Shown piece after piece: positions 4,101 through 55,686 of a DNA stretch of 64,000 bases. Every line of letters starts with the position of its first letter. The first letter of the stretch is position 1. The notes under the pieces were generated by a model. The model had not been told where the DNA came from and searched no databases. It saw only the letters and a list, made by a program, of their open reading frames with translations. The translations under genes were made by a program, and so were the position numbers. The stretch spans positions 64,001 through 128,000 of IMG/VR virus record IMGVR_UViG_3300028374_000002. One strand, given 5' to 3'. This DNA is from a virus. Taxonomy: Duplodnaviria; Caudoviricetes.

Positions 4101-4832
4101 ATGAAACATATAAAACCTTATAAGATATTCGAAAGCAATGGTCCTAAATTTCCAACTACAAGAGAGGAAGTTATACAAGTGTGTAAAAAGTATAAAATAA
4201 TAGATTATACTATTAATGATGATTTGAGCATTGATGTTGATGGTGGTGTATATTTAAACAGAAGATACTTAGAATATTTACCACTTAAATTTAATTATGT
4301 GAGTGGTAATTTTTATTGTCATCATAATAAATTAAAATCGTTAGAAGGTAGTCCACAAACAGTAGAGGGGGATTTTAAATGTTATTTTAATAAATTAAAG
4401 ACATTAGAAGGATGTCCACAAACGATTAGTGGTAGTTTTAATTGCTCTGATAATTATTTGAAACTATTAAAAGGTTGTCCACAAACAGTAGATGGTAGCT
4501 TTGATTGTTCATATAATAAATTAATATCATTAGAGGATGGTCCACAAACAGTAGGTGGTTATTTTGAATGCGATAATAATAAATTAACTGATATGGAACA
4601 CTTCCCAGAAGTAAATGGTCCTATAATCATAGATGGGAATCCAGTAAACTCTTTAATATTTACCTTTATCAAAAACGCAGATAGTTTTCTCATAGAAGAT
4701 TTCGTAGATTATGAAATAGTTAGAAATGGCGATACTGTTATGTTAGATAGGCTTCGAACTTTAATTAATGATAATGATTTAAAAATGCCTGACTTAGAAG
4801 GTATTAAAAAGCACTATAAAATAATAGAATAA
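4101..4832 (+). CDS. Leucine-rich repeat protein, copy 6 (5 repeats)
   Basis: Five repeat units; same caps; last gene of the array. Confidence 0.85.
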   Translation: MKHIKPYKIFESNGPKFPTTREEVIQVCKKYKIIDYTINDDLSIDVDGGVYLNRRYLEYLPLKFNYVSGNFYCHHNKLKSLEGSPQTVEGDFKCYFNKLKTLEGCPQTISGSFNCSDNYLKLLKGCPQTVDGSFDCSYNKLISLEDGPQTVGGYFECDNNKLTDMEHFPEVNGPIIIDGNPVNSLIFTFIKNADSFLIEDFVDYEIVRNGDTVMLDRLRTLINDNDLKMPDLEGIKKHYKIIE

Positions 4833-4835
4833 TGA

Positions 4836-5108
4836 TTAAATATCACTTAAATCAAAATTTGTTGTTTTTATTTTATAACAATTTGTCCAAAACTCAGTCA
4901 CAAAGTCTATAACAGTATCTGATTTAATTCTATCATTTTTATTTATCTCATTCTTTTCAGTATCACTAGAACATCTTTGGACATCAGCAATACCAGCAAA
5001 GAAGAATATATAAGCTTCTCCAATTTCTATGACATCAGTGTTTTCATAACATTCAAAATCATACTCTACATTTGAATGTCCTTCAATTTCTCTCTTAAAA
5101 TTTTTCAT
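4836..5108 (-). CDS. Hypothetical protein (likely start ATG 5108, MKNFKREIEG)
   Basis: ORF with ATG about 22 nt downstream of a TATATTTG element. Confidence 0.65.
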   Translation of the reverse strand: MKNFKREIEGHSNVEYDFECYENTDVIEIGEAYIFFFAGIADVQRCSSDTEKNEINKNDRIKSDTVIDFVTEFWTNCYKIKTTNFDLSDI

Positions 5109-5129
5109 AGTACAAATTGTTTTATAAAG

Positions 5130-5137
5130 CAAATATA
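5130..5137 (-). promoter_or_regulatory. Bacteroidota-type sigma70 -7 element TAnnTTTG (TATATTTG)
   Basis: Exact match to the consensus, intergenic, oriented toward the 5108 start. Confidence 0.55.
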
Positions 5138-5303
5138 CAACATATAATATGAAAACCTAATAAATATAGATAATAATTATAAAGGGAGGTGTTTATATTA
5201 ATATATACGTTAGCTGTTCACTGCTTATGTCGGATATCATTATGGTGTCTTAAAGATTTGATTAAGAATCAAAGATATAGGTTTAAAAATAAAAAGAATA
5301 ACT

Positions 5304-45216: not shown

Positions 45217-45945
45217 ATGACACCACAATTAGAAAAAGTATTCTTCAGCTATATTCTTTCAAATAGAAAAAAATACTATGAAATAGTTAAACCATTTTTC
45301 TTTAAAAATTCAACAATTCAGTTTGTATATGAGGTTATGAGAAATTACATGCTTACATCCACTGAAACAAAGCCCCCTAGTAATAGGCAAATACTAGATA
45401 TGGTATCATTAGAAGATAAAGAAGGTATCATAACAAAGCCTATGCTCAAATCTATATTAGATGTTAACCTAAGTGAATACAATGAAGTTAATTTTATACT
45501 TCCAAAGTTTAATGGATGGGTGCTGTCTAATAGAATCAAAACTGGAACAGTTGATGTCATAGAGGAAACTAGAAATTTGGATAACATATCAGACTTTGCA
45601 CATGCTGTTGAATCTGCTAATAAAATAAAAAGTATTATCAATGAGATGTCATCTGTAAATTTTGTACAAGATGAAGATATGGGATCTGATTTTGATGAAC
45701 CAGAAAACCATGTTCAAGATTCCTCAAGGTTTAAAGTAAAATGTGGATTCGAAACAATAGACCATATGCTAGGTGGTGGTTGGGATATCTCAACTTTGAA
45801 CGTAATTATGGCTCAAACTAATGGTGGTAAATGTTTTTCTACTAAAACACTTGTAAACACTAGAGTCAAGGACACTAATATTATTAAAGAGATAGAAATC
45901 GGAGAACTATTTAATGATATTAGTAATCAAAATAGTAATAGCTAA
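45217..45945 (+). CDS. dnaB: Replicative helicase gp41/DnaB N-fragment fused to a short split-intein N-half
   Basis: KCGFETIDHMLGGG...LNVIMAQTNGGK ends at the Walker A Lys, then CFSTKTLV... (37 aa) and stop. Confidence 0.85.
   Translation: MTPQLEKVFFSYILSNRKKYYEIVKPFFFKNSTIQFVYEVMRNYMLTSTETKPPSNRQILDMVSLEDKEGIITKPMLKSILDVNLSEYNEVNFILPKFNGWVLSNRIKTGTVDVIEETRNLDNISDFAHAVESANKIKSIINEMSSVNFVQDEDMGSDFDEPENHVQDSSRFKVKCGFETIDHMLGGGWDISTLNVIMAQTNGGKCFSTKTLVNTRVKDTNIIKEIEIGELFNDISNQNSNS
45832..45942 (+). mobile_element. Split intein N-half (37 aa, atypically short) of the helicase
   Basis: Block A CFSTKTLVNTR and the IEIGELF strand, then stop. Confidence 0.85.
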
Positions 45946-46023
45946 ATTGTGTAAAATAAAGAGAGGTATCTAAACTTAACAAATTTTACAAGTATAATAA
46001 TCACACATAAATATAAAATATTA

Positions 46024-47184
46024 ATGAATAGTAATTTTAAAATAATAGAAGCCGATTCTCTCTTAGAAGGTGAGTACGACAAACCATTATATGATAAGTT
46101 CGTAGAAGCTTATGGGGTTAATAATTTAGAAGTTGAAACACCACAAGGGTGGATTGATATTGAAGGAATTGGAAAAACTATTAAATATGAAGAATATAAA
46201 CTAATCCTTGCTAATGGGTGTGAATTGATATGTGCAGATGACCATATACTATACAGATGTGATAATCTGAACTTTATTAGTAGGAAGTGTGACATAACAG
46301 AACTATTTTGTAAGAACTTAGAATTAGGTGATTTTATAATGACCAAAGAAGGCCCTGAGATGATAATGGATTTTGATAAGACTGGAAAAGAATCACATAT
46401 GTATGACTTACAACTTGGTGTAGGTTCTGATAAAAAATACTACACTAATGGTATATTAAGTCACAACTCACTTTGGATGCAGAACTTTGCAGTAAAGAGT
46501 GCCAATAGTGGACATAACGTACTATACATTACACTAGAGATGAGTGAAAGAAAAGTTATGAAGAGGTTGGGTTCTATGCGTTTGAAAATACCTATAAATG
46601 ATTATGATACAATATCAAAAGATACTGAACTCATAAGAAGGAAGATAAAGGGATTATCTAGTATATCAGAAAATGATTTATTTGATAAGAAGGTAGGTAA
46701 GATAATGACTAAGTTTTGGGCAGCTGGTACTGCAAATATTGATGACTTTGATTATTATATCCAAAAGTTAAAAGATAAGAGAGATATAAAAATAGATATG
46801 ATTATAGTAGATTATATAACACTCATAGCACCATTAAAAGCACCAGGTGTTGATAGTCTCTATACTAAGGGTAAACAACTTGCTGAAGGTTTGAGGGCAT
46901 TAGGGGCTAAATATTCATGCCCAGTTGTAACTGGTGTACAAGTAGCTAAAGATGCTTGGAATTCATCTGATATAACACTAGAAAGTGTACCAGAATCTAA
47001 GGCTATCGCAGAAACTGCCGACACATTTTTTGCAATAATAAGAACGGAAGAAATGAAAAGGCAAAACCTATTCAGATTTAAACTTCTTAAACAAAGAGAT
47101 GGAGATTTTCTTAAATCACAGGTTAGACTAACATTAAACACGACATATCTAACATTAGAGGGTGATATGTTTGTTGATCAATAA
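46024..47184 (+). CDS. dnaB: Split-intein C-half (148 aa) fused to gp41/DnaB C-fragment
   Basis: LICADDH (block B), MYDLQL...YYTNGILSHN|S (blocks F/G, ends 46467); extein SLWMQN, YITLEMSE, IIVDYITLI, VVTGVQ. Confidence 0.9.
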   Translation: MNSNFKIIEADSLLEGEYDKPLYDKFVEAYGVNNLEVETPQGWIDIEGIGKTIKYEEYKLILANGCELICADDHILYRCDNLNFISRKCDITELFCKNLELGDFIMTKEGPEMIMDFDKTGKESHMYDLQLGVGSDKKYYTNGILSHNSLWMQNFAVKSANSGHNVLYITLEMSERKVMKRLGSMRLKIPINDYDTISKDTELIRRKIKGLSSISENDLFDKKVGKIMTKFWAAGTANIDDFDYYIQKLKDKRDIKIDMIIVDYITLIAPLKAPGVDSLYTKGKQLAEGLRALGAKYSCPVVTGVQVAKDAWNSSDITLESVPESKAIAETADTFFAIIRTEEMKRQNLFRFKLLKQRDGDFLKSQVRLTLNTTYLTLEGDMFVDQ

Positions 47185-48203: not shown

Positions 48204-49400
48204 ATGATAAAGGTAGTAAAAAGAAATGGTAAGAAAGAACCAGTAATGCTAGATAAAATTCTAGATAGAATAGAGCAACAAACTTATGGATTAGATAGAA
48301 AATGGGTAAGTCCATTTGATGTTGCACAAAAAGTAATTGGTGGTGTTGCACCAGATATAAAGACCTCAGTCCTAGATAAACTAGCAACCGAGACAGCTGC
48401 CGCATTAGCTACTAAGCACCCAGATTATTCAATATTAGCATCAAGATTAGCTATAACTGCATTGCATAAAGATACGAAAAAATCATTTTCTGAAACGGTT
48501 AAAGATTTATACAAATATATAAATCCAAAGACAAATGAGAAATCACCAATTGTGTCTAAAAGTTTCTATGAGATTGTTAAGAAAAATGCAGATAAGCTAG
48601 ACTCTGCTATAATACATACTAGAGACCATCATTTTGATTTCTTTGGTTTCAAAACATTAGAGAAGTCTTATTTGTTAAAAATAAATGGTGAAGTTGCAGA
48701 ACGTCCTCAATATATGTATATGAGAACTGCCATACAAATATGGCAAGATAATATTGATAAAGTTATTGAGACATATAATACGATGTCTGAGGGGTATTAC
48801 ACACACGCTACACCAACTTTATTCAATTCTGGTACTAGGAGACCACAATTATCTTCTTGCTTCTTATTAGACACGGAAGATGATTCTATTGAAGGGATAT
48901 TTAACACTCTTAAAGAATCTGCTCAAATATCTAAAAACGCAGGTGGGATAGGTATTAATTTCAATAATGTAAGAGCAAAGGGTAGTTATATAGCAGGTAC
49001 TAACGGTACTTCGAATGGTATAATTCCTTTCTTAAAGATTTATAATGAAACTGCTAGAGCAGTTGACCAGTGCTTTACACCAGAGAGTAAAGTAATAACA
49101 GAGAGAGGTGTTATAAACATAAATGAAGTAGAAAGGGGTGACAAAGTCTTGACTAGTGATGGTGTTTATAATTCTGTCATAAAGAGAAAAGATTTTAATA
49201 AATCAGATGACTTTATAACAATTACAACAAAGAGTGGTGTTAATAGAGTTACTAAAGGTCACCAAATATTAGTTATTAGAGGTTTGGATAAAGACATATC
49301 TAAAGAAGCCATTAAAGAAGGGATTAAGCAAGGTGTATATAATGTAGAATGGATTTCTGCTAATGAATTAATGAAAAGTGATAAAATAGTAAAATACTAA
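48204..49400 (+). CDS. nrdA: Ribonucleotide reductase alpha, fragment 1 (ATP cone...AVDQ) + IntN1
   Basis: VVKRNG ATP cone, HATPTLFNSG, QLSSCF, GGIG; then CFTPES... intein N-half (49071-49397, 109 aa) and stop. Confidence 0.95.
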   Translation: MIKVVKRNGKKEPVMLDKILDRIEQQTYGLDRKWVSPFDVAQKVIGGVAPDIKTSVLDKLATETAAALATKHPDYSILASRLAITALHKDTKKSFSETVKDLYKYINPKTNEKSPIVSKSFYEIVKKNADKLDSAIIHTRDHHFDFFGFKTLEKSYLLKINGEVAERPQYMYMRTAIQIWQDNIDKVIETYNTMSEGYYTHATPTLFNSGTRRPQLSSCFLLDTEDDSIEGIFNTLKESAQISKNAGGIGINFNNVRAKGSYIAGTNGTSNGIIPFLKIYNETARAVDQCFTPESKVITERGVININEVERGDKVLTSDGVYNSVIKRKDFNKSDDFITITTKSGVNRVTKGHQILVIRGLDKDISKEAIKEGIKQGVYNVEWISANELMKSDKIVKY

Positions 49401-49466
49401 TATTTGTAGTTTAATATATATAGTAACAATCCTCTAGGGTTTGTAAAAAATATATTAAACTATAGT

Positions 49467-50390
49467 ATGGTAAAGTGTAATACGGAAGAAACAATTAAAA
49501 AATTTAAAAAAAAGCATAGTAATAAATATAGTTATGAGTTAGTTAAATATAAATCAGCAATATCTAAGGTTAGTATAATATGTAGTAAGCATGGAATATT
49601 TGAGATAACGCCAAATAGTCATTTAAATGGTTCTGGTTGTAGTTTATGTGGTAGAGAAAGAACTGGTGAGAGCAAAAAGTCTGATACATCCTTGTTTGTA
49701 AAATCTGCTAATAGAGTACATTCTCATAAATATAATTATAATAGATGTACCTATATAACAAATTTAGACAATGTTACAATAACTTGTAAAAAACATGGCG
49801 ACTTTTACCAACAAGCTAGAAAGCATTTATCTGGACAAGGCTGTAAAAAATGTGCTAATGAAAGCCAATATTGTAATTTCGTAGAAAAATGTGAGAAAAA
49901 GTATAAAGACTATTTATATAGTAAAGTAAACTACAAAGGTATGTGTAGTGATGTTATAATAACTTGTAAAAAACATGGCGATTTCAGTATTAAAGCTGCC
50001 AATTTTTATCATAAAGGAAGAGGTTGTAAATTATGTAAAACATATAATAAGTCTATTAAAGAAGGCGAATGGTTAGATGATATGGGGATAGATAACATCA
50101 ATAGAAATGTGTATATTAATTTTGGTAAAAAGGTTTTCTGTGTAGATGGTATAGATAAGAAAAGAAAAATAATATACGAATTTTATGGTGACTTTTTCCA
50201 CGGAAATCCTGAAGTTTATAAAAAAACAGATATAAATCCACTTCTTAAAGAAGAATATGGAAAACTTTATAAAAAAACAAAAGATAAAGAAAACATTATT
50301 ATCTCAAATGGATATAAGATAATATATATTTGGGAAAATGATTATAATAAAAATAAAAATAAAAACGGAAAGTATGAAAGAAAACATTGA
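49467..50390 (+). mobile_element. Free-standing endonuclease (3 zinc-ribbon repeats + Vsr/DUF559-like nuclease) between IntN1 and IntC1
   Basis: Three CxxHG...CxxC repeats; VDG...IYEFYGDFFHG. Confidence 0.8.
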
Positions 50391-50574
50391 AAGTGGAACA
50401 GAATGGATTGAAGATCCTGTTGATTTAAATCTAATTATAGACAATTTAGATTTTGAAGGTATAGAGGATATATCAATTAATAAAATAGAGAATCAAAATG
50501 TTCATGATCTAGAGATAGAAAATCAACATAATTATATTGTTGATGGGCTAGGAATAGTTCATAACGGTGGAGGT
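50374..50574 (+). CDS. nrdA: nrdA fragment 2, exon 1: IntC1 (64 aa, ends HN at 50565) + GGG
   Basis: VHDLEIENQHNYIVDGLGIVHN followed by GGT GGA GGT and the intron 5' splice site. Confidence 0.85.
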
Positions 50575-50869
50575 AAATAAGCGTATGCTTCCACTTTAAA
50601 AAATTTGGAGAATTGCTGGGAAATTCTTAGAGTTATCATTACTACAACATAAAGAGTAATCTTAAGTGTGAAAGTTAAAAAAATGATAAATTGGACAATC
50701 AGCAGCCGCCTTTCTTAGGGATAAGAAAAAGGTTCAACGACTAATGAGAGTAATGTAGACCACAAGAAATCAACACGAGCACCAAACACAGAAATGTGAA
50801 GATATAGTCTGATCTTGTATGAAAGTATAAGAAATTAGGATAAAGACCCTAATGATAACAAAGTAAATG
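50575..50869 (+). mobile_element. Group I self-splicing intron (295 nt, no ORF) in nrdA
   Basis: 5' exon ends in U, intron ends in G; IGS GCTTCC (50587-92) pairs with GGAGGT including the U.G wobble; core elements AATTGCTGGGAA (P), AATCAGCAG (Q), GTTCAACGACTA (R), AAGATATAGTCT (S); splicing restores GGG|KRKGS in frame. Confidence 0.95.
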
Positions 50870-51604
50870 AAACGCAAAGGAAGTATAGCCATTTATATGG
50901 AACCATGGCATGCTGATATTATGGAGTTCTTAGATTTAAGAAAAAACCAAGGTAAGGAAGAAATCAGGGCTAGAGATTTATTCCTAGCTATGTGGATGAA
51001 TGACCTATTTATGGAAAGAGTTGATTTGGACAAAGATTGGTCTTTGATGTGTCCTAACGAATGTAAAGGATTGGGTGATACTTATGGTGATGAATTTCGT
51101 GAGTTATACCTTAAATATGAAAGTGAGGGAAAATATAAAAAGGTTGTTAAGGCTAGAGAAGTTTGGAATAAAATCTTAGAGTCTCAAATAGAAACTGGTA
51201 CACCTTATATACTCTATAAAGATACTATTAATGAGAGGTCTAATCAAAAGAATATTGGTGTTATCAAAAGTTCCAATCTTTGTCTAGACGGTAGTAGCTT
51301 GGTAAGATGTAAGATTAATGGTGTTGAAGAAGAACTTGATATGGTTACTATAGATGGTTTGTTTAAAGATGGTAAGGTAATAGAAGTTTTATCTAGAGAT
51401 GTTAAGAATGGTCTTGATGAGTGGTGTCTAGTTGAGAATTCAGGAATGATAAACAATAATGCAGAAACAATTAAAGTAACAGACAAAGAAACTGATAACT
51501 TTATAATATGTACAGAAGATCATAAAATATGGACTGAAAACAGAGGATATATTAAGGCAATTGATTTAAACGTGGATGATATAGTTAAAATTATGGAATC
51601 ATAA
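50870..51604 (+). CDS. nrdA: nrdA fragment 2, exon 2 (KRKGS...SSNL) + IntN2
   Basis: WHADI, ETGTPY, SSNL then CLDGSS...CTEDHKIW intein N-half (51281-51601, 107 aa). Confidence 0.93.
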
Positions 51605-51663
51605 ATATCGGCAAATAAAATTATCAGAAACACACATAATTAATATATAAAATAAAAATAATT

Positions 51664-52515
51664 ATGTGTGTTTCTTCTAATTACTTATATATTATCACTG
51701 ATACAACAAAACCAGGTAACTATGAGTTTGGTAACCTTAAGTTTCAGTTCTTACCATTCTACGTTGGTGTTTCTAATACAGAAACCTATTACAAAAGGGA
51801 AGACGTGCATATAAGGTATGCTAAAATTAAAAAAGATGTTACCAAAAATAAGTATAAGATGAATATAATAAACAAAATACTTAAATCTAATAAAGAACCA
51901 CATATATATAGATTATACGAAAATTCTACAAGAGATTTTATATTTAAAAAAGAAATTGACCTAATACTAATGATTGGTAATAGGTTTGATAAAACAGGAC
52001 CACTAGTGAACATATCAAAAGGTGGTGAAGGTGGTGATACTTTCACAAACAATCCACGCAAGGAAGAAATAAGAGAGAAGCATAGGTTGAATGCAATAGG
52101 ATCTAAAAATAACATGTATGGTTTACCGTTGGAAAAAAGACCATCTCATATTTCAAAACTAAGTGGGACACATTGGAATAAGGATAGTGTTGTAAGCGAT
52201 TCCACTAGAAAGAAACTATCAAATAAGAGCAAAGGTCATAATAATAACAAGTCAAAATTTACACTATTATTTGATAAAGATTTCAATTTTATAAAAGAAT
52301 TTGAATGTTGTATGTATATAGCAGAACATATAGGATCAACAAAAAAAGCTGTTTCAACAACGGCAAGGAGAAATTCGAAAAAAGAAATCCCTTATCACAC
52401 AACAAAAGAATTCTTTATTATATATAAAGAGGACTGGGAAAATAAATTTAAACATAAAGAGGAAGAAATTAAAGAATTTCTTAGAACTTTTAGAAAAAAT
52501 AAAAATCAATTTTAA
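51664..52515 (+). mobile_element. Free-standing GIY-YIG endonuclease between IntN2 and IntC2
   Basis: YLYII...PFYVG, LVNISKGGEGG, NUMOD3-like basic repeats; homologous to the N-terminus of the 36009 ORF. Confidence 0.8.
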
Positions 52516-52540
52516 TAAAAAAATAAAAAAATAAAAAAGC

Positions 52541-53620
52541 ATGATAAAAATAGAAAGAGTAAAAAATAGACCTGTTTATGATATTACAGTAAATAAAAAC
52601 AATAATTTTTATGCAAATAACATATTAGTTCATAATTGTGGTGAGATAGTAGAAGCCACGGGAATTACAAAAGCACAAAAGCCTATATTGGAAAACAAGG
52701 AACTTTTAGAAAAATTAAATCTAGGAGAGTTTTATGGCAAAGAAAGTGTTAATGAGACTGCTGTTTGTAATTTGGCATCTATTGCACTACCTAAGTTTGT
52801 GAATAAGAATAAAACATATAATCATAAAAAGCTATACGAAACTGCTTATACTGCAACTGTAAATCTAAATAATGTAATTGATTATAATTATTATCCTTCT
52901 GAAAATGCTAAATTTTCTAATATATTACACAGACCGATTGGTTTGGGTGTACAAGGATTAGCAGATGTATTTTTCCTAATCGGAATTCCTTATGACTGTG
53001 ATGATGCTAAAGCACTTAATAAAGAAATATTCGAAACTATTTATTACGGAGCTTTATCTGCATCGAATGATTTGGCTAAGGAACAAGGAACATATGAGAC
53101 TTATAAAGGTTCTCCTTTATCAGAGGGTAAATTTCAGTTTGACTTATGGGGTGCTACACCAACAAAAAGATGGGATTGGGAAAAGCTAAGAGTTAAAATA
53201 TTAGAGCATGGTGTTAGAAACTCTTTAACTACGTGTGTTATGCCGACCGCTTCGTGTTTTACTAGTGATGGTACTATATTCACAGAGGATGGTGTAAAGT
53301 CTTATAGAAATATAATGAATGATATGGATATAGATTGGGAGAAAATAGAAGAAACCAATGAGCAAGGATGGATTAAATTTAAAACACCATTAATGGTAGA
53401 AACTAGATTTGGTCTTAGAGAGTCTAATAAAATATTCTACAATGGTCATAAGGAAGTTATAGAAATCGAATTAGAAGATGGGAACATATTTAAATGTACT
53501 GAAAATCATAAGTTCTTAGTAGAAAGGGATGGTGCTGATGAATGGATTACTGCTAATGATTTAGTAGAAAGTGATGAGATTGTTGAAAGTAGCCTAATGC
53601 TCGAAAATACGAGGGAGTAG
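52541..53620 (+). CDS. nrdA: nrdA fragment 3: IntC2 (32 aa) + CGEI...MPTAS + IntN3
   Basis: VYDITV...FYANNILVHN|CGEI; AVCNLASI, RPIGLGVQG, GVRNS, MPTAS|CFTSD... (53255-53617, 121 aa). Confidence 0.95.
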   Translation: MIKIERVKNRPVYDITVNKNNNFYANNILVHNCGEIVEATGITKAQKPILENKELLEKLNLGEFYGKESVNETAVCNLASIALPKFVNKNKTYNHKKLYETAYTATVNLNNVIDYNYYPSENAKFSNILHRPIGLGVQGLADVFFLIGIPYDCDDAKALNKEIFETIYYGALSASNDLAKEQGTYETYKGSPLSEGKFQFDLWGATPTKRWDWEKLRVKILEHGVRNSLTTCVMPTASCFTSDGTIFTEDGVKSYRNIMNDMDIDWEKIEETNEQGWIKFKTPLMVETRFGLRESNKIFYNGHKEVIEIELEDGNIFKCTENHKFLVERDGADEWITANDLVESDEIVESSLMLENTRE

Positions 53621-53665
53621 GCATAGGACAAGGCATCACTTTAATATATAAATAAAAAAGTATTT

Positions 53666-54904
53666 ATGGTTAAAGTGATGTCTAAGTCTTTCTCTTCAAA
53701 GCGAATGTTTTTAAAAAAATTAAAAGGTGTGAAAATAGTTGAAAGTGATATAGAATGTGGTATAGATGAATTATTTGCGTGGTATGGAATACCAGAGAGT
53801 ATAAATTTATGTAAAAAAATTGACATAATAAACCTAAAATTAAATAATAACATCGATGATAGGCAGTTAAAAACATATTTAAAAAAATCATTAAATACTT
53901 TTGAAATTAAAAGGTTTTTATCCTATATTGAATATAAAAGTAATAATCCTAAAGATGTTAGTTCAGAAAATTATTTTAAGTTAGTATATGGTAAAGGTTG
54001 GGAAAATTATAAAGACAAGAAAGCAAAGGATAGAAAATCCCCATATGACTTAGAGTATGTTGCCAAGTCCAATAATATATCAACTGATAAAGCTAAATGT
54101 AAGATATCAAAAATGAAATCAGACAAAGCAACTAACCTAGTTGGATTTATAAGAAGACATGGTAAAGAAAATGGTGAAAAAATGTTTCAAAAATTTCAAT
54201 TAACTAGCAAACATACATTAGAAAAGTATATTAACAAACACGGAAGTATCATAGGATTAGAAAAATGGAATAAGTATTTGTTGGTTAAATCAGAAACTTC
54301 AGCATTTAATAAAAATTTTTGGATTAACAAAGGATTTACTAAAAAAGAATCAATCGCTAAAGTCAGAAAAATATCAGACAATAGTAGTTTGAAATATTTT
54401 ATAAATAAACATAATGGTAATATAGATGTTGCAAAGACTGAATTTATCAAATTTATTAGGAAAAAGGGTGTAAATTTCAATAATGCAAGTAAGGAGTCAT
54501 TAACTTACTTTAATAGTTTGTATAAAAAACTAATAGAATTTGGTATATATGATTGTGATATACACTTAGGTGCATTTGGTAAAAATGAGTTATGCCTTTT
54601 CTATGAAGATGGTTGCTATCTTTATGATTTTGCTATAAAAAGTCATAAGCTAATTATAGAATATCACGGTGAGAGATGGCATCCTAACCCTGATAGATTA
54701 TCTGATAAAGAATGGAATTCGTGGAAATGTATTGCTAGTGGTATCAGTGCAAATGAAAAGCATTTAAGAGATAGGCATAAAGAAAAAGTGGTATATGACA
54801 ATGGTTTCAAATTACTAGAAATATGGTCTAATGATACATATAAACTTAATTGTTATAAAATAAATAACTTTTTAGAAGAAAATAATATAAAAATAAATAA
54901 ATAA
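53666..54904 (+). mobile_element. Free-standing Vsr/DUF559-like endonuclease between IntN3 and IntC3
   Basis: YLYDFAI...LIIEYHGERWH...LLEIWSND. Confidence 0.75.
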
Positions 54905-54906
54905 TT

Positions 54907-55686
54907 ATGAAAATAAAAAAGATTACAAAATCACAAACGACTAAACCTACATGGGATATAGAAGTAGAAGATGTTCACGAGTATCTAACTGGAAATATGT
55001 GTGTGTCACATAATACTGCACAAATACTAGGTAATGAGGCATCTTATGAAGCACAGACCTCTAATATGTACTCTAGAGGAACATTATCAGGTACATTTAT
55101 TATGGTTAATAAGTATCTTGTAAAAGAGCTAGTTAAACAAGGTATATGGGATGATAATATAAGAAAGAAAATTATAACAGAAAATGGTTCTGTTCAAAAC
55201 ATACCAGAGATACCTACAAATCTTAAAGAGATATTTAAGACAGTTTATGAGGTTAAGCAGAAGGATGTTATTGACATGTGTGCTGATAGGGGGGCTTTTG
55301 TTGACCAAACACAATCTATGAATATTTTTATGGATTCTCCAAACTTTGCTAAGCTAACTGCTATGCACTTTTATGGATGGGGTAGAAGAAAATTCTTAAA
55401 AGACGAAAGAGGTCAAGATGTTATACCAAGTGGTGATAATATAGAAATTATTTATAATGAAGATGGTACTCCTAGATTTTATAGAGATAAAAAATCTTGT
55501 CTAAAAACTGGTATATATTATCTAAGGAATAAAGGAGCAGCTGATGCTGTTAAATTTACTACTAAGCAAGTAACAGAAGAAGTTAAAGTTGATGAATCAG
55601 AAATGTCACCAAAAGAATTCCAAACTATGGTTGAAAATTCTAGAAATGCACAAGATGATGATGACTGTTTAATGTGTGGTTCTTAA
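54907..55686 (+). CDS. nrdA: nrdA fragment 4: IntC3 (36 aa) + C-terminal NrdA
   Basis: TWDIEVEDVHEYLTGNMCVSHN|TAQILG; DQTQSMN, KTGIYYLR, C-terminal CLMCGS redox pair. Confidence 0.95.
   Translation: MKIKKITKSQTTKPTWDIEVEDVHEYLTGNMCVSHNTAQILGNEASYEAQTSNMYSRGTLSGTFIMVNKYLVKELVKQGIWDDNIRKKIITENGSVQNIPEIPTNLKEIFKTVYEVKQKDVIDMCADRGAFVDQTQSMNIFMDSPNFAKLTAMHFYGWGRRKFLKDERGQDVIPSGDNIEIIYNEDGTPRFYRDKKSCLKTGIYYLRNKGAADAVKFTTKQVTEEVKVDESEMSPKEFQTMVENSRNAQDDDDCLMCGS

Follow-up and report, generated by a model that had tools for sequence, protein, structure and literature searches.

We describe here a split intein with glycine at the +1 position that interrupts the substrate-specificity loop (loop 2) of a ribonucleotide reductase (RNR) from a huge phage. 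The gene lies in the window, that is, the whole stretch of 64,000 nt analysed (positions 64,001 to 128,000 of IMG/VR record IMGVR_UViG_3300028374_000002, a virus of the Caudoviricetes), in which the alpha subunit of class Ia RNR, NrdA, is encoded at 48204-55686 (+) as four polypeptide pieces. These pieces are set apart by three split inteins, each with an open reading frame (ORF) between its halves, and the gene also contains one group I intron. The halves of the first intein, IntN1 and IntC1, are carried by separate ORFs of the one locus and flank pieces of this single host gene; the Cys, Ser or Thr that a canonical class 1 intein requires at +1 is absent. A first-pass annotation of the same DNA had pointed out this junction. 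Going beyond it, our comparisons indicate that the split phage intein is one member of a very large, mostly unsplit Gly+1 family and that the Gly+1 puzzle is general, not peculiar to the source phage. A glycine-compatible way of maturing the RNR probably exists.

The junctions can be read directly. The first piece of NrdA closes with GTT GAC CAG (Val-Asp-Gln, VDQ) at 49062-49070, and the next codon, TGC at 49071-49073, is Cys1 of IntN1, whose last codon TAC (49395-49397) is followed by the stop codon TAA (49398-49400). IntC1 opens with the ATG at 50374 and finishes with CAT AAC (His-Asn) at 50560-50565, after which come GGT GGA GGT (50566-50574) and AAA TAA, the +1 codon being GGT at 50566-50568. 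The first-pass annotation had placed the intein and its glycines at 49071-50574, with Cys1 directly after VDQ and IntC1 ending in VHN before GGT GGA GGT, and its coordinates and codons proved exact. The uninterrupted nrdA of a 642-kb phage (LR756502) has GTT GAT CAA GGT GGT GGT AAA CGC AAA GGG (VDQGGGKRKG) at this place. This intact loop is exactly the end of exon 1 joined to the start of exon 2, with a mature loop of VDQGGGKRKGS, and removal of the intein at Cys1 and Asn gives exactly the loop of the intact allele. Because the intact loop already reads VDQGGGKRKG, no spare residue is left by the intein, and the +1 residue is therefore the first loop Gly both before and after RNA splicing, as had been claimed. 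Cys, Ser and Thr are absent from +1 to +7 (GGGKRKG).

The interrupted loop can be placed by comparison with the human enzyme. The nrdA product is a eukaryote-like R1 (human RRM1, 5d1y/3hnc, E = 0), and VDQGGGKRKG aligns with VDQGGNKRPG of human RRM1, residues 286-295 by offset count in the alignment, which bears out the earlier assignment to loop 2. By the same count the intein sits between Gln288 and Gly289 in RRM1 numbering. We take RRM1 residues 286-295 to be loop 2, in which Gln288 and Arg293 are the key positions.

Directly after the three glycine codons, the RNA is interrupted again. A match to RF00028 was found at 50565-50831, its 56.7 bits exceeding the gathering score of 50 (E 5e-14, 361 bases searched alone); an Rfam search over 14 kb gave nothing at E up to 1, a blank that reflects a filter effect and not the absence of the intron. 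In the P1 helix, exon GUGGAGGU pairs with GCUUCCAC, with the U.G at 50574, and the terminal G of the intron is at 50869. On these sequence features the group I intron is real, and it is kept in all related alleles. Other placements of the intron ends, such as would alter the +1 codon, were considered and rejected, since this codon lies 9 nt 5' of the splice site in the same open frame as His-Asn, and since the exon junction equals the intact allele. An independent start of the second piece at the ATG at 50867-50869, the last bases of the intron, was likewise rejected as the normal route. This ATG has no visible ribosome-binding site and is CTG in the diverged allele of phage LR756504, so a separate start of the second piece is not conserved. 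In another allele (L004, IMGVR_UViG_3300036715_002117, about 4240-5170), the intron after GGG departs from the others past about 60 nt and exceeds them in length by about 700 nt; it may carry an inserted ORF.

The Gly+1 junction is neither an assembly error nor a sequencing error. Four assemblies cover 48900-51100 (DNA contigs, which attest presence only, from four runs under four different studies of lake and salt-lake metagenomes), with 5-18 differences in this interval and zero at 50560-50574; a Ser, Cys or Thr codon at 50566-50568, the finding that the first-pass annotation had said would speak against its claim, was looked for in all four and is in none of them. The strain variants between assemblies concentrate in IntN1, with 11 sites within 49135-49379 (for example GG to AA at 49135-49136, Arg to Lys), and one variant in the 3' tail of the intron is T to C at 50864; the junction codons are without variants. 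The same junction is found throughout the split relatives. A search with IntC1 gave 80 clusters, 74 of which reach the C-terminus, and all 74 end in G(L/I/M)VHN followed by GGG. In nearly every case GGG is then followed by K and a stop, and therefore the intron travels with the intein. On the other side, all 70 clusters found with IntN1 read ETARAVDQ/C (the slash marks the junction, here and below).

The residues expected to act at the two junctions are kept, as is the reading frame. In IntN1, T61 and H64 of block B are invariant and Cys1 is kept across relatives at 49-97% identity; in IntC1, D45 (block F), H63 and N64 are invariant in a 19-row alignment. The remaining positions of the intein diverge to about 50% identity. 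As the catalytic residues are invariant or nearly so while others diverge, the chemistry at both junctions is under selection. The exteins show a ratio of nonsynonymous to synonymous divergence (dN/dS) of 0.03-0.18, IntN1 one of 0.12-0.50 and IntC1 one of 0.12-0.47, all clearly below 1; these are rough values from five alleles with saturated synonymous divergence (dS above 0.8). No frame breaks were found in the 74 IntC and 70 IntN clusters. Three alleles (L004, L005 and L006) are without the endonuclease gene, their IntN and IntC lying just 40-200 nt apart, and the split intein has persisted in them after the loss of that gene. The kept catalytic residues, dN/dS below 1 and unbroken frames rule against the decaying remnant that had been named as a way in which the earlier claim could fail. 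We read the intein as a functional, naturally split representative of a large loop-2 Gly+1 clade, an explanation that, taken together with the aminolysis route set out below, we hold at about even odds.

Most of the family is contiguous. When the IntN1 profile was compared with 1.84 billion representatives, 1791 matches were obtained at E <=0.001. Many of the best 150 were RNR alpha proteins interrupted by an intein at the equivalent point (...V/I-D/N-Q/C), and many of these inteins are contiguous; these RNR-inserted relatives align with IntN1 over its whole length. The readable C-junctions among the best 150 comprise ten with Ser+1 (...LVHN/SGKRNG and similar) and ten with Gly+1 (...HN/GGGKRK, GGKRNG, GGRRKG). 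Among these Gly+1 proteins is the NrdA of cultured Undibacterium strains. In a bacterial scan with one genome per species, the site pattern matched at 413 loci, and the best 80 of these were examined. Complete contiguous inteins were present at 72 of the 80 and have Gly+1 in all 72 cases, with a length of 354-388 aa and the pattern DTAVAVNQ/CFAP... (A/V)HN/GGKRKGA. Together with the 74 of 74 split clusters above, this answers whether Gly+1 is conserved in homologues, a check that the first-pass annotation had proposed. The remaining eight loci are cut by a contig end or interrupted by a stop; at four of them (L048, L050, L055 and L078) a stop closes the intein frame before the C-junction, and these could be broken, split or frameshifted copies. 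Two contiguous Gly+1 inteins are without the penultimate His, ending in ...LVRN/GG in Halochromatium salexigens DSM 4395 (L042) and in ...LVSN/GG in Thiocapsa sp. (L036).

The bacterial carriers belong to Chlamydiota, Gamma- and Betaproteobacteria, Verrucomicrobiota, Actinomycetota and Thermomicrobiales, and include the type strains of Thiothrix eikelboomii, Thiocystis violacea, Halochromatium salexigens and Actinorugispora endophytica. In T. eikelboomii ATCC 49788 and in one complete 4.5-Mb chromosome, the intein-bearing gene is the only PF02867 gene, and a class III (NrdD) gene was not found in either assembly; in the other three genomes checked, a second reductase is present. Since the Gly+1 gene is the sole RNR found, the working RNR must come from a Gly+1 precursor in those two assemblies, if they are complete. 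Among the phages, the fractured nrdA of the 636-kb phage LR756504 is its only one.

To see how the Gly+1 and Ser+1 inteins are related, we used a tree of 49 rows, with other inteins and tandem repeats resembling bacterial intein-like (BIL) domains as outgroups. The loop-2 inteins, including the CroV RIR1 intein, fall together (82/87) and apart from other inteins. The split inteins of huge phages form one clade (100/98), as do the Ser+1 inteins (100/98), which are nested, with moderate support, among Gly+1 rows. On this tree, whose deep branches are only moderately supported, one Gly/Ser change suffices, and Gly+1 looks like the older state. In the host clade of the Ser+1 inteins, the intein-bearing alleles have Ser in 17 of 17 cases, and the intein-free alleles have Ser in 21 and Gly in 32, a tally that excludes 50 proteins not parsed by the pattern; in the Gly+1 clades, the intein always sits with Gly. 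The inteins of the Ser+1 clade thus seem to be tied to Ser, whereas those of the Gly+1 clades do not.

Structure prediction supports assembly of the intein. For the IntN1-IntC1 complex, the interface score ipSAE was 0.89, against 0.00 for the best control, with a partner confidence (pLDDT) of 74-76 and agreement between runs in at least 90% of contacts. This mark is attained by 58 of 80 solved complexes and by 2 of 110 mismatched pairs; split-intein complexes are among those already solved, and the pass may reflect likeness to them. The halves are thus predicted to assemble into one HINT fold. They also differ in charge, IntC1 being acidic (16 D/E, 2 K/R) and IntN1 slightly basic. In a fold search, the top matches of a modelled contiguous Gly+1 mini-intein (pLDDT 87) are BIL domains (6y75, 2lwy), with canonical inteins close behind at equal TM-scores. 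The best match of the IntN1 profile in PDB sequences is the Clostridium thermocellum BIL domain 2LWY (E 2e-6), compared with 4e-3 for the gp41-1 intein. The Hint_2, Hint and PT-HINT models match more family members than Intein_splicing does. PF07591 (PT-HINT) matches 18 of 21 IntN1 relatives with a best E of 3e-5, and Hint_2 and Hint match 21 of 21 and score better, in each case with scores not shown to reach the gathering score. Six proteins (P0176, P0179, P0181, P0219, P0239 and P0255) have tandem HINT domains with short linkers of the form ...VHN/KGGG/CF..., that is, with Lys at +1. Such tandem-HINT proteins are among the nearer relatives of IntN1 and resemble the BIL-ubiquitin-like loci whose BIL2 tops the fold search.

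Canonical splicing requires Cys, Ser or Thr at +1 for transesterification (PMC4031507), and on this point the first-pass annotation was right. Type A BIL domains, which have Cys1 and His-Asn and no +1 nucleophile, ligate through a thioester, Asn cyclisation and a free amino group (PMC4031507). By analogy, we favour a BIL-like aminolysis for the loop-2 intein, in which a thioester, Asn cyclisation and religation by the Gly amine would follow one another, and we would give this route about half of the total probability. Once splicing has removed the group I intron, two polypeptides would be made, one consisting of the first NrdA piece and IntN1 and the other of IntC1 followed by GGGKRKGS... and the second piece. 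The slightly basic IntN1 and the acidic IntC1 would then form one HINT fold, in which Cys1, aided by the Thr and His of block B and the Asp of block F, would convert the Gln-Cys peptide bond to a thioester. The terminal Asn, aided by the penultimate His, would cyclise and free the C-extein with its Gly alpha-amine. Kept near by the intein and the folding RNR barrel, this amine would attack the thioester to give the native Gln-Gly bond. Amine attack is the route proposed for type A BIL domains, and the amine of Gly is unhindered. The sequences themselves show the anatomy of the locus, the kept catalytic residues, purifying selection, Gly at +1 throughout the family and the sole-RNR cases; the path from assembly through religation, and above all the ligation step, is what we infer. 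The aminolysis route gains indirect support because, in a cultured bacterium, the single RNR gene found is one into which a contiguous Gly+1 relative is inserted.

Several points weigh against religation. A canonical intein usually undergoes cleavage instead of splicing once its +1 residue is replaced by a non-nucleophile. BIL domains lead canonical inteins by a small margin in sequence score and by a negligible one in TM-score. What the sole-RNR cases show is the production of a functional enzyme and not its ligation, and they are limited by the completeness of the assemblies. When blocks F and G were compared, none of the residues stood out as separating the Gly+1 inteins from their Ser+1 relatives; the two look alike there, and a residue that could account for special activation of the amine was not found. 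BIL domains themselves give mainly cleavage and less spliced product (PMC4031507, PMC7664689).

The last point leads to the most serious competing explanation, which we regard as possible and clearly less probable than aminolysis: the intein may be a self-cleaving assembly module. Its halves would associate, the RNR fragments would fold together, the thioester would be hydrolysed or thiolysed, Asn would cyclise, and a nicked two-chain alpha subunit, with the ends ...VDQ-COOH and H2N-GGGKR... and no peptide bond in loop 2, would do the work. The conserved Cys1, Thr/His and His-Asn are accounted for equally well by such a module as by ligation, and cleavage is the main outcome for BIL domains without a +1 nucleophile (PMC4031507, PMC7664689). 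Two non-covalent RNR alpha chains can also be active, as in NrdA-a/NrdA-b of phage Aeh1, a precedent cited in the first-pass annotation that holds (PMC3045599). However, the Aeh1 fragments need special tails to assemble (PMC3045599), and none would remain here after cleavage. In addition, thioester hydrolysis is slow without an added nucleophile, and the contiguous relatives would have to become a two-chain essential enzyme in hundreds of bacterial species. Gln288 and Arg293 of loop 2 relay specificity (yeast and human R1 work), and a break right after Gln288 should harm regulation.

The other explanations appear progressively weaker. It is improbable that maturation takes another route, in which the ends are joined or trimmed by a factor from host or phage, or in which a branched intermediate arises from a nucleophile other than the +1 side chain or the alpha-amine. 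Nothing speaks positively for it, and we list it because no residue specific to the Gly+1 inteins was found. Against it, Cys, Ser and Thr are lacking throughout GGGKRKG, and a dedicated helper would have to travel along with a family that occurs in phages and in at least five bacterial phyla. We think it very improbable that the intein is only an affinity clamp, whose halves stay in place and hold the RNR fragments together with no bond chemistry. The predicted tight complex and the opposite charges of the halves would fit a clamp, but an inert element would not need Cys1, Thr/His, Asp and His-Asn, which are invariant across about 70 clusters, and a domain of 173 aa (378 aa in bacterial relatives) would sit at the interface of the specificity and active sites. 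Of the two readings offered in the first-pass annotation, non-canonical aminolysis is therefore retained as the best fit, and a pure affinity module is disfavoured on account of the invariant catalytic residues. Least credible of all is that the intein is decaying or dead and its nrdA non-functional. The endonuclease has been lost in L004-L006, and a phage could in principle use the RNR of its host; against this stand the dN/dS values (0.03-0.18 in the exteins and 0.12-0.50 in the intein halves, at saturated dS), the absence of frame breaks in the 74 and 70 clusters, the two further canonical split inteins and intact intron kept in the same nrdA, and the bacterial relatives that occupy the only RNR gene found.

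Compared with known systems, the loop-2 intein combines features that have been described separately. The CroV RIR1 intein (InBase, YP_003970087) has the same insertion point, ...RYVNQ/CFTPDT...SSGIVHN/SGRRKGSFAFYLEP (SGRRKGS) (PMC5784728 supplement); it is homologous over the whole N-terminal splicing region and has blocks F and G in common with the window intein. The CroV intein has Ser+1, is contiguous and contains an internal endonuclease domain, whereas the window intein has Gly+1, is split, has a free-standing endonuclease gene and is followed by an intron 9 nt downstream. BIL domains are known from variable bacterial proteins that are not essential; they are not known to be mobile, to carry an endonuclease or to restore a conserved host motif. 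In contrast, the window intein is a mobile-type insertion in the conserved loop 2 of an essential RNR alpha subunit, with a homing endonuclease and an empty-site allele; what it has in common with type A BIL domains (C. thermocellum, PDB 2LWY; Dassa 2004; Aranko, Oeemig and Iwai 2013) is Cys1, His-Asn and the absence of a +1 nucleophile. The layout of an IntN ORF, a hairpin with an endonuclease ORF and an overlapping IntC ORF is that of the fractured genes, also in phage nrdA (Dassa et al. 2009, PMC2677866; NrdA-1 to NrdA-7). The published fractured NrdA inteins lie directly before the thiyl-radical Cys (NL/C) with a canonical +1 residue, which corresponds to the second intein of the window gene, and the loop-2 site with Gly+1 is absent from that paper (PMC2677866). 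In Aeromonas phage Aeh1, the RNR alpha subunit is broken by a mobile endonuclease and is functional as two non-covalent chains, NrdA-a and NrdA-b (Friedrich 2007; Crona 2010, PMC3045599); it has no intein, its chains assemble by means of insertion-derived tails, and its break lies elsewhere than in the window nrdA. In the literature searched, we found nothing relevant on Gly+1 or nucleophile-less inteins, and the work on intein insertion sites and RNR inteins does not mention a loop-2 Gly+1 junction. The fractured-gene layout (only at the NrdA NL/C site), the loop-2 site with Ser+1 (CroV) and the BIL chemistry were thus already known; a mobile, widespread Gly+1 intein family in an essential enzyme, here split, was not found in the literature searched and appears to be new.

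The features of the locus are listed in Table 1.

Table 1. Features around the loop-2 split intein of nrdA, in window coordinates.
Feature	Position	Strand	Description
nrdA piece 1 (N-extein)	48204..49070	+	ATP-cone, all-alpha domain, barrel start; ends ...ETARAVDQ
IntN1, 109 aa, Cys1 ... KIVKY + stop	49071..49400	+	block A CFTPES, block B VTKGHQILV
Imperfect 27-nt hairpin	49407..49462	+	immediately 5' of the ATG that opens the endonuclease ORF
Free-standing homing-endonuclease-like ORF, 307 aa	49467..50390	+	PHROGs; last 17 nt shared with the start of IntC1
IntC1, 64 aa, strongly acidic	50374..50565	+	block F VHDLEIENQHNY, block G GIVHN
C-extein +1 to +3, Gly-Gly-Gly (GGT GGA GGT)	50566..50574	+	exon 1 end; 5' strand of intron P1
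ORF-less group I intron	50575..50869	+	RF00028; unspliced RNA reads AAA TAA right after GGG
nrdA piece 2 (exon 2)	50870..51280	+	starts KRKGS, ends SSNL at Cys1 of the second split intein; PF02867 positions 75-213

The first NrdA piece matches Pfam PF03477, PF00317 and PF02867 and aligns with human RRM1. IntN1 matches Hint, Hint_2 and TIGR01445, and IntC1 matches PF14890 and TIGR01443, the latter with 17.1 bits against a cut-off of 15.6. Hairpins similar to the one listed occur upstream of endonuclease genes in fractured genes (PMC2677866). The ORF between the halves matches phrog_681 'endonuclease' (8e-30) and phrog_559 'HNH endonuclease' (4e-26); no match was obtained for it in Pfam and NCBIfam, and its name comes from PHROGs alone. 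Phage LR756504 has a 307-aa homologue of this ORF at the equivalent place.

The other two split inteins of nrdA have canonical +1 residues. The second (approximately 51281-52636, +) is inserted at the thiyl-radical Cys site, SSNL/CLDGSS...ILVHN/CGEIVE, and the ORF between its halves (51664-52515) has no family match. The third (approximately 53260-55014, +) reads MPTAS/CFTSDG...CVSHN/TAQILGN, and the ORF between its halves (53666-54904) has a weak Vsr match and matches phrog_22677. Upstream of nrdA, at 45217-47184 (+), a gp41/DnaB-like helicase is broken by an atypical split intein, with an IntN of about 37 aa after ...GGK/CFSTKT and an IntC of about 148 aa that ends ...ILSHN/SLW; there is no endonuclease gene between these halves.

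In conclusion, we tentatively propose, at a little short of even confidence, that the loop-2 Gly+1 inteins, contiguous and split, form a distinct mechanistic class of mobile inteins, which would splice through aminolysis by the Gly alpha-amine without a side-chain nucleophile in the C-extein, and efficiently enough to mature the sole RNR of free-living bacteria; the split form of huge phages would then be a natural pair for trans-splicing without a Cys, Ser or Thr scar. Intein-based protein ligation has its main scar and constraint in the +1 nucleophile that it needs, and, if the proposal is true, a natural split pair able to join ...Q to GGG... quickly would be a sought-after tool. If the product is instead nicked, loop 2, the specificity relay of the enzyme, would tolerate a break. 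All of the textbook intein classes (1, 2 and 3) depend on Cys, Ser or Thr as the +1 residue. If true, the maturation of an essential enzyme by a large natural Gly+1 family would be a fourth solution and would blur the boundary between inteins and BIL domains.

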